Below are positions 8,670-35,072 of a DNA stretch of 52,146 nucleotides, piece after piece. Under the pieces are notes generated by a model, which worked only from the letters and a program-made list of their open reading frames with translations, was not told the DNA's origin and did no database searches. Origin of the DNA: Acaryochloridaceae cyanobacterium VAR_48_metabat_390 (GTDB lineage Bacteria > Cyanobacteriota > Cyanobacteriia > Thermosynechococcales > Thermosynechococcaceae); assembly GCA_031422435.1 (NCBI GenBank), contig JANPLU010000084.1, positions 1 through 52,146 of the forward strand. The letters are read 5' to 3'. The position numbers and the translations under genes were made by a program. Position 1 is the stretch's first letter. Each line of letters begins with the position of its first letter.

Positions 8670-11168
8670 TTAGCTAAACTCTGTTCCATCGACTTTAAAA
8701 CGCTCCACAGAAGACTGTAGATCGCGTGCCACGCCCACCAGATTACGCAGCGAATCGGATACGCGCTGAGCCTCTTGGGAGGTTTCTTGAGCAGTCAACT
8801 CAACGGACTGCATCACCTGCCCCACATAGCGTGAGGTTTCAGTTTGTTCGGAGGTTGCTTTGGTAATAGAGCCAACCAACTGCTTAATTTGCTCAGACAC
8901 CTGAATAATGTCCTCTAGGGAGTGTTTGGCCTGTTCGGCTCGCTGGGTTCCTTCAATAACCTGCTGAGTTCCCTCCTCCATTGCGGTCATCACAGAGCTG
9001 GTTTCTCCCTGAATTTGAAGCACAATTTGCTCAATTTCCTTAGAAGACTTGGCGGCTCGGTCTGCCAACTGACGCACTTCATCTGCCACCACCGCGAACC
9101 CTCGACCCGATTCGCCTGCCCGTGCCGCCTCAATACTGGCGTTTAAGGCCAAAAGGTTGGTTCGAGACGCAATCTGCGAAATTAAACCCACAATCTTAGA
9201 AATTTCTTGAGAAGATTCCGCTAGTCGCTTTACCTTACGGGTCGTTTCCGCCACCGTTTCTCGAATCTGCATAATCCCTGCTACGGTGCTTTCTACCGCC
9301 TCTCCACCCCGTAACGCGGCGTCAGATGCACGTCGGGCGACCTGGTCGGCAGCACGGGCGCTATCCGCCACTTCCTGAATCGAAGTCGTCATCATCTGTA
9401 CCGAGTTCAGCGTAGCGGCGAGTTCCTCCGCCTGCCGAAGCGCATCGGAAGATAGCTCTCGGGCAAATTCTTCGTTTTCTGCAGCGCCCTTATTCACTTC
9501 TTGAGCCGCAACCTTCACCTGCTTAACGATTTTTTGAAGGTTGTAAATGGTGAGGTTGAAGGAGTCAGCAACCGCACCCAAAATGTCGGCTGTCACCTCA
9601 GCCTGAACCGTGAGGTCCCCCCGCGCTGCCCCTTCTACGTCGTCTAGCAGGCGAATCACCTGACGCTGAAGATCTTCTTTGGCCTTTTCCTGATCGTCAG
9701 CCTTTCGCTGAGAGTCTTTGGTACTGGACTCAATAAAGTGAGTCATTTTGTTGAAGCTCTTGGCAAGTTGACCAAACTCATCATCAGAGAACTCGATCGC
9801 CTTGACCCCCCAATCGCCTTGCGCAACAGCCGATAGTTTAGTCTGCAAGTCGCTGGTTGATGCCTTAAGCTGACGCGTGATAATTTGACTGAGCGCCAGA
9901 GTGGTAAGCCCTCCCATTGCCCCTGCGGCTGCAGCCCCTAACCCTAACTTCGCCATGGGCGTTCCTTGTAGACTGCCCACCACCAGTGCCGTTACGCCAA
10001 CCACCACACCCGTAGATGCCGCCATGATAATGGGCTTTTTATTGAGGGGCGTATTTTCAAAGGGGGCTAACATTGGCAGTCGCCGTGAAACCACGTTTAA
10101 TGCCGCAGCCTTGTCAGAGTCAGCTTTCAGCGTGCTGCTGCTAGACGGCTTCTTCATCAAAGCCTCTGACTTTTCAGCCCCACTGCTTAAAGACGGTTGC
10201 GCTACAGGCTCAATGGATAGAATGCCTGTGGCATCAGCTTCCCACTCTTCAAGCATATTTCCTTCCCTGAGTGGATGGACGGCATCCGCATTAGTATCGA
10301 GATAAAAATCTGCTTCCGTTTGGAGGGAAACAGATCTATCGAGATTGGCGAGGTGATCGGGTGAATCCATCTCGTCGTTGTCTATGTGATTTAGAAAATC
10401 GCTGAAATCTTCTTCACCGCTTTGGATCTGAGACGGTAAGGCACTACTGGGCAAGCCATCATCCAATCCATTTATATTTTCTTCTGCAAAATTGTTAACG
10501 TGAGGCGCATCACCAGCATTGGCTTGCTCTCCAGAAAATTGATTATCTGACATCGAACCCTCTGGCTTTTGTGAACCTTTTTTTCCCATCAAGAGCGTAA
10601 TTTCTTCATCATCATCAAATAAATCTGAAGCCTGAGCTAAGTCAGCTGAACCCAAAAGGCTCTCTTCAGAATTGTTCTCTTGAAACAACAGATTTCGCCA
10701 GCCTACCTGAGACGCAGGTGCTTCCATACCGTTTTGCATCTCTAAATCAAGATTGGCGGCTGGAACCTCAACCTGCTTTTGAGAGGCCGCTAAGCCCACC
10801 TGAATTTGGGTCATTTCCCCTTCAGATTCAGAATACGATGACATATCTGGCCAATACTCTACTGGCCCAGTCATATCTTCAATCGAGCTATCCCCTAAAA
10901 TCTGAGCGACATCTGACAGGCTATTGTTGGCGCAACCCCTCAATTCGGGGTCATTGGTCACTTGTAGCACCTGCTGATAGTGGTGCTGTGCAACGTCATA
11001 CTGACGTAAACAACTGTAGATGTGACCGCAGAGCAACTGTAGGTTTGGATCGTCAGGATACTCTGATACCAAGGTCTTTGTAAGAGATGCGGCGTCTTCA
11101 TAGTGACCCTGCATGTAAGCACTCACTGCTTGTTGATATTGCTGTGCATATTGAGTACTGAATGCCAT
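8670..11168 (-). CDS. Methyl-accepting chemotaxis protein (PilJ/HmpD type) with N-terminal TPR
   Basis: [37 protein letters not shown] signature, HAMP ([11 protein letters not shown]), two TM helices, N-terminal TPR-like helices. Confidence 0.93.
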
Positions 11169-28944: not shown

Positions 28945-30777
28945 TTAACGGTAATTCTCGGCCTGGGACTCAAACAGTCTGGCATAGCGACCGTTAAGCT
29001 CAACCAACTCCTCGTGGGTTCCCGCTTCGGCAATGTGTCCGTTGTCCATCAAATAAATGCGATCCGCCATTCTGACCGTCGAAAGCCGATGGCTAATCAA
29101 CACCGCCATTTGATCGCGGGTTAGCTCTCGAAACCGCTGAAACACCTCATACTCCGCCATCGGATCCATCGCGCTCGTCGGTTCATCCAGAATAATGAGC
29201 TGCGAGTTCCGCAGAAAGGCGCGCGCCAAGGCCACCTTTTGCCACTGACCAATGCTCAGTTCTTCCCCTTGCTCAAACAGCTTGCCTAAAATGGTGTCGT
29301 AACCCTTGGGCAAACGCTCAATCACGTCGTGGGCACCTGATCGCCGTGCGGCCTGCTCAACGTCCTGCTCGACAGAAGATTCAATGTTGCCAAGCCAGAT
29401 ATTGTCTCGCACCGAGAAAAAATACTTGGCGTAATCTTGAAAAATAACGCTGATATCCTGCCGTAAATCTGCGATCGCAAAGTCCCGAATATCAACCCCG
29501 TCAATCAGAATCTGTCCCTGGGTCGGTTCATAAAGACGGCACAGCAATTTAATCAGCGTCGTTTTGCCGCAGCCATTCTCACCCACTAAGGCGATCGTTT
29601 CTCCAGGTAAAATTTTGAGAGAAACGTCATCTAAAGCCTGTCTGGGCGTATCGGCATACTGAAAGCTGACGTTTCTTACCTCAATCCCGTGCTGCACTGG
29701 CTTCGGGAACGGCTTCGGATAGGCCGGATCGGCAATTTTAGGCTTTAGGTTCAAAAATTCGTACAGGTTGGTCAAAAAGAGATTGTCTTCGTACAGCCCC
29801 GATAGCCCACTCAAAACCCCTTGCAGCGCCGACTCCCCTCGCTGAAGCGCCTGCTGATACAGCACTAAATCACCAATCTTAAGCCTGCCCTGAATCGTTT
29901 CGTAGGCAATAAACACAAAGACCGCCACCGTCAACACTTTGGCAAAGCTTTCTGCCGATAGGTTTGCGATCGCCCGTCGCAGCATCAACCGAAAATTCTC
30001 TTGGTATAGCTGGAGCCGCACCTCACGTCCCTGCCGCCGAAACAGGCCACTTAAATTAAACAGCCGAATCTCTTTGGCAAACTGATCGTGCGCCAGCAGC
30101 ACCCCTAAATACATAGAGCGCCGTTCTAGGCTGGTTCGCTTACGCTGCCACTGATACTGCACCTTTGCAAACTTGAGCCGCACCCAAAGTGCAGGCAGCG
30201 CCGCCACCAGCAGCACACCAGCCAGCCCCCAGTACAGCGATATGAGCAGCGCCAAAATCCCCGCAAGCGAAATGCCGTTTTGTAAAACCTGCGCAATCCG
30301 ATTCAGAATTTGATTGGGTCGAAACGATGCCTCCTGCTGGGCGCGCTGAAGGGTGTCGTAATACTGCGCATTTTCGTAATACTCAAGATCAATCTCAGCG
30401 GATTTTTGAAACAGAATCTCCTGAACATGATCCGTAACCCGATAGGTCTGCGCCGCATTCACCAACTCCGCCAAGGAGGTAAATACGCTGGTGATCAGCA
30501 TGACGCACCCAGACAAAATCAGCAGAAAGAGTGCATGTTCAAACGCTACGGCCTTATTTACCGCCGTTAAGCTCACCGCAATTTGGTCAATAATCAGCTT
30601 GAGTAAATAGAGCGAGATCAGCGGCAATACACCCTGTAAGCTCAGCACCACAACGCGAGCCACTGTCCATTGCGGGGAGCTTTGCCACACCAGCCGTAGG
30701 GCAGGGAGCAAATGAAAGGCTTTTGTAACGCGTTGACGTATTTTTTGTAATGCCTGCATAGAGAACATCTTAAACAT
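28945..30777 (-). CDS. ABC exporter (lasso cluster D protein)
   Basis: TMD plus GENGCGKTT, LSIGQWQKVALAR, ILDEPTS, ISHRLST; overlaps the kinase stop. Confidence 0.9.
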   Translation of the reverse strand: MFKMFSMQALQKIRQRVTKAFHLLPALRLVWQSSPQWTVARVVVLSLQGVLPLISLYLLKLIIDQIAVSLTAVNKAVAFEHALFLLILSGCVMLITSVFTSLAELVNAAQTYRVTDHVQEILFQKSAEIDLEYYENAQYYDTLQRAQQEASFRPNQILNRIAQVLQNGISLAGILALLISLYWGLAGVLLVAALPALWVRLKFAKVQYQWQRKRTSLERRSMYLGVLLAHDQFAKEIRLFNLSGLFRRQGREVRLQLYQENFRLMLRRAIANLSAESFAKVLTVAVFVFIAYETIQGRLKIGDLVLYQQALQRGESALQGVLSGLSGLYEDNLFLTNLYEFLNLKPKIADPAYPKPFPKPVQHGIEVRNVSFQYADTPRQALDDVSLKILPGETIALVGENGCGKTTLIKLLCRLYEPTQGQILIDGVDIRDFAIADLRQDISVIFQDYAKYFFSVRDNIWLGNIESSVEQDVEQAARRSGAHDVIERLPKGYDTILGKLFEQGEELSIGQWQKVALARAFLRNSQLIILDEPTSAMDPMAEYEVFQRFRELTRDQMAVLISHRLSTVRMADRIYLMDNGHIAEAGTHEELVELNGRYARLFESQAENYR

Positions 30778-31654
30778 CCATGGGTGTGGTGATGCCTCTT
30801 AAATCTGCTTCAACAAGCTTTACTAAATCAGACAGCTCAGACAGCGCAGGCTTCCGCTCAAATCGCGCTATCGGCACATTCTGCGCCATCCAAGTGCAGT
30901 CTCGAAAATTCTTGGTTCTAAATTCAGAATGCGTGAGCAACGTGGTTGCCCGAGAATGCTGAAGCAGCGCAATACAGGCATCCGAGGCATTTAGCTCCAC
31001 AATCCGATGCTCAGCCCCTTCATCTAAAACATAAATGCGCTCCAGCGGAAAAGCCGCTTGCCCAAAGCCAGTCGTAAGCTGATGCGATCGCTTAGTCGAT
31101 GAACCATGAATAACGGGCAAACTCTCAGGAGAGTAGCCCGTCGCCGCCGCAGATTCAGGCCAAAGCTTAATCAAGGGGTATCCTGGTAGCGCCATTGGGC
31201 AATCTCCACCCAATTGAACCACCATTACGTCATCCGTCATCACCGGATACCCGTGACCGTGAAAGGCTTGTGCCATTGTTGACTTGCCCGCGCCGCTGTT
31301 GCCGACAAAGGCGATCGCCACGTTATTAACCACAGCGCTACTGGCATGAAGCACTAGCAGCCCTCGCTGACGCAGCAGCACCGCTAAAATAGGGCCAACA
31401 ATAAATGTATTAAGCAGTGCTTCATCTACCCCTGGCAGCGGGTCAACCAAAATTTTTCGACCGTCCAAAACCGCAAACGTGGCAACGCCATCTACCGTAC
31501 CCACAAACTGCTGTCCACCATCCGACTTCAGCGTTTCTAAGTCTTTAGAGCTTGCTAAGACTAGCCATACATCTGGTTCGCCATCCCCTAGCGTTAAAGC
31601 CCGCAACGGAATCTCAGAGCAAACACTAAGCTGATAAGCAGTATAAGTGTACAT
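30770..31654 (-). CDS. HPr-kinase-like kinase (PadeK-type lasso tailoring kinase candidate)
   Basis: LHASS, Walker A GNSGAGKST, TDD di-aspartate; lies directly after the precursor. Confidence 0.82.
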   Translation of the reverse strand: MYTYTAYQLSVCSEIPLRALTLGDGEPDVWLVLASSKDLETLKSDGGQQFVGTVDGVATFAVLDGRKILVDPLPGVDEALLNTFIVGPILAVLLRQRGLLVLHASSAVVNNVAIAFVGNSGAGKSTMAQAFHGHGYPVMTDDVMVVQLGGDCPMALPGYPLIKLWPESAAATGYSPESLPVIHGSSTKRSHQLTTGFGQAAFPLERIYVLDEGAEHRIVELNASDACIALLQHSRATTLLTHSEFRTKNFRDCTWMAQNVPIARFERKPALSELSDLVKLVEADLRGITTPMDV

Positions 31655-31759: not shown

Positions 31760-31790
31760 AAAAAAGGGTAGAAACTAGTTTCTACCCTTT
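31760..31790 (-). terminator. Perfect 28-bp palindrome plus U-tract downstream of the lasso precursor
   Basis: aaagggtagaaactagtttctacccttt (31763-31790) is its own reverse complement; A-run on the left. Confidence 0.7.
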
Positions 31791-31865: not shown

Positions 31866-32033
31866 TTATTTAGGAACAACATTACCATCTTGAGAGCCAG
31901 TAGCATTACCAAAAGCATTTCCGTTAAAAAAGATGGTATCTGCAGCGTTAGAACTGCCAAAGGCTTGGGTAATTTCTTGTAAAGCGCCGTGTTGCTTTAA
32001 TTTAGGGGCATTAAACTGTTTTTTCATGTCCAT
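31866..32033 (-). CDS. Lasso peptide precursor (55 aa; alternative start 32027)
   Basis: MDMKKQFNAPKLKQHGALQEITQ-AFGSSNAADTIFFNGNAFGNATGSQDGNVVPK; leader FxxPxLxxxGxxxxxT with Thr at -2; Asp at core position 9; lies between cyclase and kinase. Confidence 0.9.
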   Translation of the reverse strand: MDMKKQFNAPKLKQHGALQEITQAFGSSNAADTIFFNGNAFGNATGSQDGNVVPK

Positions 32034-32202: not shown

Positions 32203-34281
32203 TCAGGACTCATAATCTCTAGATTCATTTTGCACTATCCTATTATCCTGTTTCTGAAGCCTCAGCCACAGCGATAGTGCTGTTCCTCTCCAAACTGTCG
32301 TTATTTGAACCTGCCGATTTTGTAAACTGAACTTAAGGGATTGAAACTGATCTTGCAAAAGCGCTAAATTCAAGAAGGACTCAGCACTGCCGCCGCCATG
32401 ACCGGAGAGCGCGTTTTCGACAGTAGATCCGTCGGTATGGATCAGCCCGTGTTCAAAGTTCTCTTCCATAGATGTCTTTCCCCCTCTCCACCGAATCGGT
32501 TCAGGCAACACATCTACCAATGCTCGACGCATAACACTCCGCGACCATCCATTTTTGAGCTTCTGCTCTGGCGGCAATGCCAGACAAAACTCAACCAATC
32601 GCTTGTCCATAAAAGGGTGTCTGACCTCAATAGAAAAGGCAGACGCGCACTGATCCGATAACTCTAGAACATGGGTAAATGCGCCAGAGGTTAAATCTCT
32701 ATACTGATCTTCCCTGGCGCTCTGAGGAGGGTACTGGCTCGATTGGCGCGCCTTACAAAGGTTGAAAACGCCCAAGCGTAAAGCAAATTGAGGGTTAAGT
32801 ACAGCGCTAGCGTTAAGGATTTCGTTCGACTGCTGTGCCTTTTTGGTGACGTATTTAAGCTTATGAACAACCCCCAAAAGCCATTGAGGTAAATAAGGCT
32901 TAATCCCATACTGTAGCCACAGCTTACGACGAGATATTGTAAAAGTCTGGCTGATGCCATTAACCCGTTGAGCAAAAGTTAGCCACTGGTGCTTTTGTGC
33001 AAGTTCCGATAGGTAAGGCATAGCATACGCTAACAGAATTGCCCCTGGAGAGGTGTCGAAGTGCCTAGAGACAGCCTTCGCTTCTGCAACAAAGGTTTCC
33101 CACTTTCCTTGACGCGCCAATTCCGTAAAATAAACCGATCCGTGAGAGACAACCGTATCTCCATCAAATCCGTCTAGGCAAATGCGAACGCCAGAAGCCT
33201 GAGTGGCACGGTTTAAACCATGAACGAGAAAATGACTCGGCCCTAAAAATGGTTCATCTAGGTACCGGAAAAATTCTTGCCATTTCGACAAGGGACCAAG
33301 GCGATCTGCCTCTATAAAATGCGGGATATAGCCACCCTGCTCTAGCACTATATTAAAATACTCGCGTTCATCACAGCTTGAGATGCGGTCGAAAATATTA
33401 GAAAAGGTATGCAGGGCTGCAGAACTAGATTGCTCTAGCAGCTCATGCGCCACGCAGGTGATGGCAGAAGAATCCAATCCCCCACTGAGGTGAGAACCGA
33501 TGGGGAAGGCACTGCGAAGCCGACAGCGAACCGCCTCAAAGAAAATGTCTCTAAATGCTGCTGCATAGTCTTCGTCTGTGGGCAAGGTAACAGATGCGGT
33601 GCAGTCGAGTGACCAATAGCAGCAAAGATTGAAATCTGCCTGTGCCGCAACAGTTACCCAGTGGGCTGGCGGGAGCCGAAAAATCTCTTCGTAGACAGTG
33701 TCAGACTTACTTTCTAGCATTGGTTCTAGAAAGTAGTCGGCAATGCGCCGCTCGTTAAGCTGACGAGATACCTCTGGAACCGCAAGCAGCGCTTTGATTT
33801 CAGAGGCAAAAATAAAGTATTGATCTGTATTGCAGTAGTAAAAAGGCTTGATGCCAAAGTGGTCTCTTGCACAGAAAAGCGTTTGCTTGCGGCTATCCCA
33901 AATGGCAAAGGCAAAGTCGCCCAGAAGATAGTTGGGGCAGTCTTGCCCCCATTTTTGATAGGCAGCTAGGATGATCTCACTGTCTGAAATGGCTGAAGCG
34001 TTGACAGCATCTAGCGCTAAGGCGTTAATCAATTCTTCTCGATTGTCAATGCGAGCATCTGCCGTAATGACCAAATCTGCGGCAGCGTCGCAGTAGGGCA
34101 GAACCTCTTTCAAGGACTCTGGTGTTGTCCATAGCATGCCGTGCCCTAGCCCAATCCTGTCACCCAGCCAAACCTTTGACCCATCCGATCCTCGATGAGC
34201 CATGGGTTGGAGCATCCGCTCAAGGACTTGGGACTCTATAGGACGTCCGTTTTTATTAAAAATACCGACAATTCCGCTCAA
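32203..34281 (-). CDS. Lasso peptide isopeptide-bond-forming cyclase (asparagine synthetase-like, C protein)
   Basis: Starts MSGIVG (Ser in place of the AsnB catalytic Cys), ARDHFGIKPFYY, SHLSGGLDSS, GFDGD, RHPFMDKRLVEF; TTG start with GGAG RBS; adjacent to B1/B2. Confidence 0.9.
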   Translation of the reverse strand: MSGIVGIFNKNGRPIESQVLERMLQPMAHRGSDGSKVWLGDRIGLGHGMLWTTPESLKEVLPYCDAAADLVITADARIDNREELINALALDAVNASAISDSEIILAAYQKWGQDCPNYLLGDFAFAIWDSRKQTLFCARDHFGIKPFYYCNTDQYFIFASEIKALLAVPEVSRQLNERRIADYFLEPMLESKSDTVYEEIFRLPPAHWVTVAAQADFNLCCYWSLDCTASVTLPTDEDYAAAFRDIFFEAVRCRLRSAFPIGSHLSGGLDSSAITCVAHELLEQSSSAALHTFSNIFDRISSCDEREYFNIVLEQGGYIPHFIEADRLGPLSKWQEFFRYLDEPFLGPSHFLVHGLNRATQASGVRICLDGFDGDTVVSHGSVYFTELARQGKWETFVAEAKAVSRHFDTSPGAILLAYAMPYLSELAQKHQWLTFAQRVNGISQTFTISRRKLWLQYGIKPYLPQWLLGVVHKLKYVTKKAQQSNEILNASAVLNPQFALRLGVFNLCKARQSSQYPPQSAREDQYRDLTSGAFTHVLELSDQCASAFSIEVRHPFMDKRLVEFCLALPPEQKLKNGWSRSVMRRALVDVLPEPIRWRGGKTSMEENFEHGLIHTDGSTVENALSGHGGGSAESFLNLALLQDQFQSLKFSLQNRQVQITTVWRGTALSLWLRLQKQDNRIVQNESRDYES

Positions 34282-34294
34282 CCATGCACTCCTG

Positions 34295-34774
34295 TCACTC
34301 TAGTGACTCAATGGGTCGAATGCGTAAGGGCTGAGGCAGACTAGGCAAAGGCTTGAAGCGGCTTAGGTCATTGAGCTGCCCCATTACAACGTGCCCTTCA
34401 TACTCAATCCAAGCATGGGCTTCGAGCTGATCAGCATTATTTTTATCCACGCCAATCATGAGTTTTGAAGGGCAGCCCTGCTGGTCTAAGAGCGTTTTCA
34501 TCGTGAGCGCTCTGGCTAAACATTTCACAGAACCTGGCATAAATTTACAGCAGGCATTGACAGCCCATTGCACCCGAGCAACAAGCTGACGTTGACTAAG
34601 CAGGTCTGTCGCAGCGGCCTGCTTGGGACTGCTAATGCGCTCTAAAAAACTACGCAAACGATTAAAAGACCGCCAAACCAAACCTAGCCGCACGAAGGTC
34701 AATAAAACGTAGGTTTTAAGGAAAAGATTCCGCTCTGGCGGGGCAATCTGAATAAACCTAAGAATCGGCTTCAT
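34295..34774 (-). CDS. Lasso peptide leader peptidase B2 (transglutaminase-like)
   Basis: KCLARAL and EAHAWIE catalytic Cys/His motifs; start MKPILRF overlaps the B1 end. Confidence 0.9.
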   Translation of the reverse strand: MKPILRFIQIAPPERNLFLKTYVLLTFVRLGLVWRSFNRLRSFLERISSPKQAAATDLLSQRQLVARVQWAVNACCKFMPGSVKCLARALTMKTLLDQQGCPSKLMIGVDKNNADQLEAHAWIEYEGHVVMGQLNDLSRFKPLPSLPQPLRIRPIESLE

Positions 34775-35072
34775 TGCGAATCTCGACGAGCTGAGCATTC
34801 ACTAAATCGCTCAGTAAAGCCTGGACGGAGCTTGCGCAGGTTTCGGAGTCTACCTCATAGTCTTCCAGAATACTGTCGCAAATGTCTGCAACGGTCTTGG
34901 GCTGTTGAATGAACTCCCAGATCACGCTGCCAAGCTCATCTAAGCCGTAGTACGTCCCGTTTTTGAGGTTGAGAATAACAGACTCGCCAGCCAGATCGGA
35001 TGAAACCTGGTCTTGACTCACAACGACGAGGGAATCTTGCGAAATCAAAGCGCCAGAGGTAGACATACTCAT
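34758..35072 (-). CDS. PqqD-family RiPP recognition element (lasso B1)
   Basis: SSDLAGESVILNLKNGTYYGLDELGSVIWEFI...YEVD...LLSDLVNAQLV. Confidence 0.92.
   Translation of the reverse strand: MSMSTSGALISQDSLVVVSQDQVSSDLAGESVILNLKNGTYYGLDELGSVIWEFIQQPKTVADICDSILEDYEVDSETCASSVQALLSDLVNAQLVEIRNEADS

Follow-up and report, generated by a model that had tools for sequence, protein, structure and literature searches.

A cyanobacterial lasso peptide cluster with a kinase gene and a likely phosphorylation site at an internal serine of the precursor tail

We analysed a window of 52,146 nucleotides from the genome of an Acaryochloridaceae cyanobacterium, in which the lasso precursor gene at 31866-32027 sits in an intact B1-B2-C-A-kinase-ABC cluster. 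The six genes are co-directional, all on the minus strand, with the precursor gene (A) in fourth place. B1 (34758..35072) encodes a 104-aa RiPP recognition element of the PqqD family (PF05402; NF033536, 83.4 bits against a cut-off of 80), and B2 (34295..34798) a 167-aa leader peptidase with Cys93 and His128 motifs (NF033537, 104.5 bits, cut-off 33). The third gene, C (32203..34281), specifies a 692-aa lasso cyclase, a macrolactam synthetase with its SGGLDS motif intact (NF033535, 913.6 bits, cut-off 525). Recognition element, peptidase and cyclase are co-located and keep their catalytic motifs, as in class II lasso pathways. After the precursor come the gene for a 294-aa P-loop protein (K, 30770..31654) and that for a 610-aa ABC exporter (D, 28945..30777; PF00005), which overlaps the kinase stop codon and holds the same post-kinase position in related loci. 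The cluster lies between purA and an ABC1/UbiB kinase gene (window:27031-36554) and has the same neighbours in L001-L003, the orthologous loci of three related MAGs (Thermosynechococcaceae/Acaryochloridaceae); its gene order is seen repeatedly across cyanobacteria. It encodes no psmN-type nucleotidyltransferase and no extra peptidase. Being compact, with a single precursor gene and without further tailoring genes, it offers a clean test case. Elsewhere in the genome lie two unlinked NTP_transf_5 (PsmN-like) genes, at G000:C128:95015-96067 (+) and G000:C16:73978-75378 (-), the former 45% identical to a cluster-linked copy in locus L039.

The space between precursor and kinase holds an inverted repeat with two perfectly matched 14-nt arms and, on the coding strand, a U-run after it (31760..31790, minus strand; arms 31763-31776 and 31777-31790). 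The folding z-score of this intergenic region is -3.3, the 28-nt palindrome is kept in L001-L003, and a related 17-bp hairpin occurs in L146. The repeat would be a terminator- or stabiliser-like element; placed after the precursor, palindrome and U-run would favour more precursor than downstream transcript. A promoter and terminator scan gave no excess over shuffled sequence and no promoter-like site upstream of the cluster, and it missed the perfect hairpin.

The first-pass annotation had read a 55-residue lasso precursor from 31866-32033. Its translation matches the minus strand exactly, down to the stop codon, and the product passes the NCBIfam model NF033528 lasso_cyano (49.9 bits, cut-off 33). 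This is the only match to that model in the whole genome, which rules out a second lasso_cyano precursor there. The first ATG (32033) is missing from all three orthologues, and translation therefore probably starts at the second Met, 32027; the precursor would then have 53 aa, of which the leader (31965..32027) accounts for 21 and the core (31869..31964) for 32. The leader pattern claimed earlier is present as Phe(-17), Pro(-14), Leu(-12), Gly(-8) and Thr(-2), and the proposed cleavage after Thr-Gln is supported. A six-frame search of the 3.7-Mb genome gives this pattern eight times, and this copy alone is in a small ORF with Asp or Glu at core positions 7-9; 60 shuffled windows contained no such ORF. 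Comparison with L001 gave 16 synonymous and 5 replacement codons, and 17 of the 21 base changes fell on the third position of a codon; the range over L001-L003 was 16-19 synonymous to 5-6 replacement codons. This excess indicates that the gene is under purifying selection and, together with the shuffled windows, rules out a chance ORF. The gene is AT-rich, with 37.7% GC against 50.8% for the window.

A precursor profile search of 1.84 billion representatives returned 389 matches at E 0.001; the best 150 yielded 144 parsed precursors, 143 of them with cores of 20 aa or more, and the profile used to retrieve these representatives contained the tail motif described below. Leader Pro, Gly and Thr were invariant in 113 of 113 aligned precursors, a biased count since the rows were hand-picked from the best 150 of 389 matches. 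All 113 match NF033528 at E 0.01 or better.

The P-loop protein had not been covered by the first-pass annotation. It carries His103, a GxxGxGKS loop, Lys124, Ser125, Asp141 and Asp142, all intact, and its AlphaFold2 model (pLDDT 94) matched PEP carboxykinases (PEPCK) and HPr kinase in Foldseek. We consider it an HPr-kinase/PEPCK-fold peptide kinase. The same His/Lys/Asp-Asp set has been described for PadeK and ThcoK (PMC9266682) and for BsfK (PMC10368454), and it is invariant in 54 of 54 aligned kinases, a comparison that omitted three odd clade rows and five long-branch rows. The cluster thus has the paeninodin type of HPrK-family kinase, with H103, K124, D141 and D142. Relatives of this kinase at E 1e-30 or better occur in 57 of 401 genomes of the class, some without adjoining lasso genes, and close orthologues (at least 77% identity) in four of nine same-genus genomes. 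Searching from the precursor instead, we found eight long-core loci in seven other genomes, and the kinase adjoins the precursor in all eight. A metagenome scan with the kinase alignment added seven loci, all distant (28-43% identity), of which two became outgroup rows. For six loci from outside the cyanobacterial set (L005-L009, L103), a relaxed scan recovered no precursor.

We built a kinase tree from 62 kinase-precursor units, and the kinase of this cluster fell in a 35-unit group with an SH-aLRT value of 100, or 99 after six outgroup kinases were added; both are quick trees with SH-aLRT support only. The tree covers kinases with at least 200 aligned residues (which excludes, for example, L002 and L094) and a parsed precursor within 2.6 kb. 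The group, hereafter the clade, is defined from the kinase tree and not from the peptide. Two arginines mark its kinases: Arg235 in 32 of 32 against 2 of 22 outside, and Arg95 in 26 of 32 against 0 of 22.

Several other loci carry related leaders or kinases. The genome itself encodes a second HPrK-like kinase, 34% identical to the one described here, at G000:C20:23574-25667 (-) (L176); no lasso genes surround it, and a 388-aa protein with a weak C-terminal PqqD match follows. Other genomes of the family (L109-L113) have similar kinases, with no lasso genes in the stretch examined. From G000:C134:29338 onward (L170:1471-1653, +) there is an orphan lasso-type leader, similar to the precursor in L100; its core has no Asp or Glu at positions 7-9, no lasso enzymes are encoded nearby, and the second kinase may serve it. 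Lasso-type leaders with poly-arginine cores, no acid at 7-9 and a C-terminal Ser are found at L142:3834-3992 (+) and L144:3608-3766 (+), next to a kinase and an exporter, with no cyclase match in the examined stretch; these could yield a linear cationic phosphopeptide. At L145:3624-3794 (-) and L147:3740-3901 (-), leaders of this type precede very acidic cores; a clade kinase adjoins, and the 7.5 kb contain no B or C match. Finally, L045, L050 and L051 (around 9800-10300, -) hold tandem precursors with Gly/Ser/Thr-rich cores, mostly without an acid for the ring; B1, B2 and a kinase flank them, with no cyclase in 20 kb; L045 also has two glycosyltransferases and a nucleotidyltransferase, and a cyclase-less, possibly glycosylated RiPP is conceivable.

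The core was said to form an Ala1-Asp9 ring, and the comparison supports this prediction. Asp9 (codon 31938-31940) is the sole acid at core positions 7-9; it is conserved in 36 of 41 distinct clade cores and in 133 of 143 library representatives (from the best 150 of 389 matches), and intact B1, B2 and C genes adjoin. Asp26 falls outside positions 7-9 and was rejected as ring acceptor. The 32-aa core has no Cys, and therefore no disulfide, in keeping with class II, and extends 23 residues past Asp9 as claimed. Natural lasso rings are reported to have 7-9 residues (PMC13352647). A few relatives have the aligned Asp at core position 10 after a normal Thr(-2), namely L037:9860-10096 (+), L040:10254-10433 (-), L042:9863-10072 (+), P0159, P0160 and P0226; they have either a shifted cut or a 10-residue ring.

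Two other judgments on the core were not supported. Ala1 had been called atypical, yet Ala is the commonest first residue in the clade (19 of 41 cores) and stands first in 62 of the 143 representatives from the best 150 of 389 matches. It is listed among ordinary lasso first residues (PMC12670498); pseudomycoidin has an Ala1-Asp9 ring by NMR (NOE), and the paeninodin ring also begins with Ala (PMC6993621). Nor is the 23-residue tail unusually long, as the residues after Asp9 comprise loop and tail together. Clade cores have a median of 37 aa (range 29-58 aa) and the same 143 representatives a median of 40 aa; 32 aa is thus short for the family and inside the 13-33 aa span of characterised lasso cores (PMC13352647). 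Achromonodin-1 has 30 aa, with a 20-aa loop and 22 post-ring residues, and pandonodin 33 aa, with an 18-aa tail and 25 post-ring residues (PMC13352647; bioRxiv 2023.06.21.545946). Both first residue and length are ordinary for the family and for characterised lassos, which rules them out as novelty.

The conserved part of the tail is a G23-S24-Q25-D26-G27 motif (31884..31898, minus strand; Ser24 codon 31893-31895). The 41 clade cores share two blocks, one comprising the ring and a hydrophobic strand (Gly3, Asp9 and positions 11-13) and the other the distal G-S-x-D with hydrophobic residues, separated by a spacer of variable length. The conserved Ser lies at position 19-35 in the clade and 19-41 in the library representatives from the best 150 of 389 matches. 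G-S-x-D occurs in 25 of 41 clade cores (2000 shuffles: mean 1.1, maximum 5) and S-x-D in 31 of 41 (shuffle mean 7.4, maximum 16); these counts come from related sequences, overstate independence and are to be read as a pattern, not as probabilities. Ten of the 41 lack S-x-D, and three have no motif at all. Outside the clade, G-S-x-D is found in 0 of 35 cores, a terminal Ser in 16 of 35 and a Ser within the last three residues in 27 of 35, as against a terminal Ser in just 2 of 41 clade cores. These placements indicate that sister kinases go with a terminal Ser and clade kinases with an internal Ser followed by an extension. Nesting in the kinase tree suggests a direction, with the extension gained after an ancestral terminal Ser. 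It had been proposed that the tail may be trimmed; as the most conserved block after Asp9 is the distal G23-S24-x-D26, the tail seems to be maintained and not an expendable end. Exactly two Cys follow the conserved Ser in L038, L041, L043, L074 and L081 and in 54 of 122 representatives (best 150 of 389 matches), and the first of them most commonly occupies Ser+4; these members are predicted class IV relatives with a tail disulfide; a Cys upstream of the Ser occurs in only 1 of the 122.

We propose, with a probability of roughly 0.6 for the reading as a whole, that the precursor of this kinase cluster gives rise to a 32-residue Ala1-Asp9 peptide that is likely phosphorylated on the tail-internal Ser24. 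The genes, their catalytic residues, the coding signal and the conservation pattern are observed, and from them we infer every chemical step. B1 would bind the leader, and the kinase would phosphorylate the still-linear precursor at Ser24 of G-S-x-D. B2 would then cut after Thr(-2)-Gln(-1), C would close the ring around the C-terminal part by linking the amine of Ala1 with the side chain of Asp9, and the exporter D would secrete the product. The calculated monoisotopic mass is 3156.45 Da for the cyclic peptide and 3236.42 Da for its phosphorylated form. This order follows the analogy with paeninodin (PadeK), pseudomycoidin (PsmK) and BsfA (BsfK), whose kinases act on the linear precursor, with help from B1 in the case of BsfK (PMC9266682, PMC10368454). 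The site cannot be the paeninodin-type terminal Ser, since the core ends in Lys and those of its orthologues in Lys or Arg. The arrangement of BsfA is not found either: this precursor has Gly3 and Thr(-2), and position 3 is Ser or Thr in 0 of 41 clade cores.

We also co-folded the kinase with the core, which scored 0.55 against 0.02 for the best control, with runs agreeing on at least 57% of contacts and a partner pLDDT of at least 42. Of 157 solved complexes, 116 reach the mark used, as do 2 of 215 mismatches; passes at 0.60 or under account for 18 of the 157 complexes and for both mismatches that pass. This model lends weak support to kinase-core pairing and names no contacts. Arg235 is a possible candidate partner for Asp26, and one idea is that Arg235 and Arg95 read Asp26 instead of a terminal carboxylate; the two may also be merely inherited marks of the clade. 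G-S-x-D could itself be conserved for structure, or be read by the cyclase, the exporter or a target instead.

How the chain would thread is a separate matter. At somewhat short of even odds, we favour an arrangement in which residues 10-22 form a hairpin loop, Gly23-Ser24 pass through the ring, and phospho-Ser24 with D26-G-N-V-V-P makes the lower lock. The loop would then vary in length within the family. Three features point this way: the variable spacer, Cys pairs that are nearly always downstream of the Ser, and few aromatics, with none at positions 14-20 in 98 of 122 representatives (best 150 of 389 matches) and 24 of 31 clade cores. Pseudomycoidin stays threaded through a bulky residue at position 21, and modification of its C-terminus was proposed to act as a lock (PMC6993621). 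An AlphaFold2 model of the core pairs residues 8-13 with 16-22, which would return residues 21-23 to the ring; its confidence is low (pLDDT 65.5, pTM 0.26), and AlphaFold is reported to fail or be unreliable on lasso folds (PMC12214591).

The strongest competitor keeps the same Ser24 phosphate and differs in the loop. Phe12 or Phe13 would sit above the ring, N14-G15-N16 would pass through it, and a long free tail, maybe clipped by exopeptidases, would follow. We regard this as possible, though clearly less probable. Hydrophobic residues occupy positions 11, 12 and 13 in 37, 34 and 28 of the 41 clade cores, Gly15 is common, and upper plugs are typically found at positions 12-16 (PMC12214591). 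Pandonodin, which combines a short loop with a long, disulfide-bearing tail (bioRxiv 2023.06.21.545946), could serve as a model for the Cys-pair members. However, a short loop leaves no conserved lower plug, as the lack of aromatics at 14-20 in most clade cores makes plain, and a 9-residue ring with only G, N or A below Phe13 would likely slip. These data also bear on the plugs named earlier, Phe12, Phe13 and Phe18. Phe18 is a poor candidate, as P0004 has Leu there and only 6 of 41 clade cores have an aromatic residue; Phe12 or Phe13 stays as a possible upper plug, given that lasso loops can be as short as 3 (PMC12214591).

It is improbable that residues 25-32 act as a follower peptide, removed after phosphorylation to leave a plain paeninodin-like 24-26-mer ending at or near phospho-Ser24. 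Host carboxypeptidases commonly truncate lasso tails (PMC13352647), but the cluster encodes no peptidase besides B2, the extension keeps a hydrophobic-Pro pattern, and the Cys pairs of the representatives (54 of 122, from the best 150 of 389 matches) imply a retained disulfide tail. A shade less probable again is phosphorylation of ring Ser4 or Ser5, with G-S-x-D kept for structure or target binding. BsfK modifies Ser3 of a precursor without a C-terminal Ser (PMC10368454), LppK also modifies Ser3 (PMC13381572), and core position 5 is Ser or Thr in the four closest homologues. Across the clade, however, no ring position is consistently Ser: positions 4, 5 and 6 are Ser in 11, 16 and 15 of 41 cores, position 5 being the best, whereas 31 of 41 contain S-x-D. 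Gly occupies position 3 in about 80%, Ser4 is replaced by Ala in the close homologues P0003 and P0004, and sister kinases pair with a C-terminal Ser. Least probable of all is a branched-cyclic, unthreaded phosphopeptide or a silent cluster, for which one may cite that unmodified pseudomycoidin was isolated unthreaded (PMC6993621) and that the cluster lacks the PsmN-type nucleotidyltransferase found beside four of seven clade loci examined, while all genes are intact, the precursor is under purifying selection, and the G000:C128 gene offers a nucleotidyltransferase elsewhere in the genome.

The lasso kinases described in the papers cited here modify a C-terminal Ser or Ser3 (PMC6993621, PMC9266682, PMC10368454, PMC13381572). 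Phosphorylation of Ser24, if true, would be a third regiochemistry and would test whether phosphorylation locks the thread sterically, as has been proposed. Should the variable spacer prove to be the loop, the cyclases of this family would accept long insertions, which is relevant to lasso engineering. One may go further and imagine a large cyanobacterial family in which an internal G-S-x-D phosphoserine is an enzyme-installed lock under the ring, following a tolerant loop of about 10-30 residues; this is a speculative extension that we consider doubtful. Were it true, threading stability would be switchable by phosphorylation, clade relatives of up to 58 aa would be by far the largest known lasso peptides, and the cyclases of the longest relatives would be natural scaffolds for large-loop grafting. 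LassoPred draws on 47 lasso structures, which represent three phyla and include no cyanobacterial example (PMC12214591). As for biological role, a secreted signalling or competition peptide is our default guess.

The precursor and the cyclase both pass their family models, NF033528 and NF033535, and nothing sets this precursor apart from its family; NF033528 spans leader and ring only (35 positions) and does not capture the tail motif. A PDB sequence search with the precursor profile found leader peptides of other lasso systems and a chance-level match, and no solved member of the family. Our literature search, with subscription journals mostly outside its scope, found no characterised cyanobacterial lasso peptide and no lasso kinase acting on an internal tail Ser; in the accessible portions of PMC9332814 and PMC6993621, cyanobacterial lasso clusters are mentioned only as predictions. 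The closest systems are the class II lasso peptides paeninodin and pseudomycoidin of the Bacillota, which share the Ala1 ring start, the Asp acceptor, split B1 and B2, the HPrK-family kinase and the ABC exporter (PMC6993621, PMC9266682). Their kinases, as described there, modify a C-terminal Ser, whereas here the core ends in Lys and the conserved Ser lies 8 residues from the end. Gene order also differs, B1-B2-C-A-K-D here and C-A-K-B1-B2-D there, and the psmN-type gene of the pseudomycoidin system has no counterpart in this cluster. BsfA/BsfK of Bradymonas sediminis and LppK of Paenibacillus offer the precedent of an HPrK-like kinase that modifies a non-terminal Ser on a linear precursor with the help of B1 (PMC10368454, PMC13381572), as predicted here. 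Their reported site is Ser3, near the N-terminus, and ours a tail Ser; BsfA is described with Ile(-2), and this precursor has Thr(-2). Pandonodin has a ring of 8 residues. Achromonodin-1 and pandonodin, of comparable length, are the precedents for the two threading models; both are proteobacterial, the accessible portions of the sources describe no phosphorylation, achromonodin-1 has a Gly1-Glu8 ring, and pandonodin belongs to class IV. At full length, the 32-mer would slightly exceed the longest class II peptide mentioned in the portion of PMC13352647 available, and its clade relatives reach 58 aa. The class of chemistry is not new, and first residue and length are ordinary; the interest of the locus lies in the likely internal phosphoserine and in the long-core family to which it belongs.
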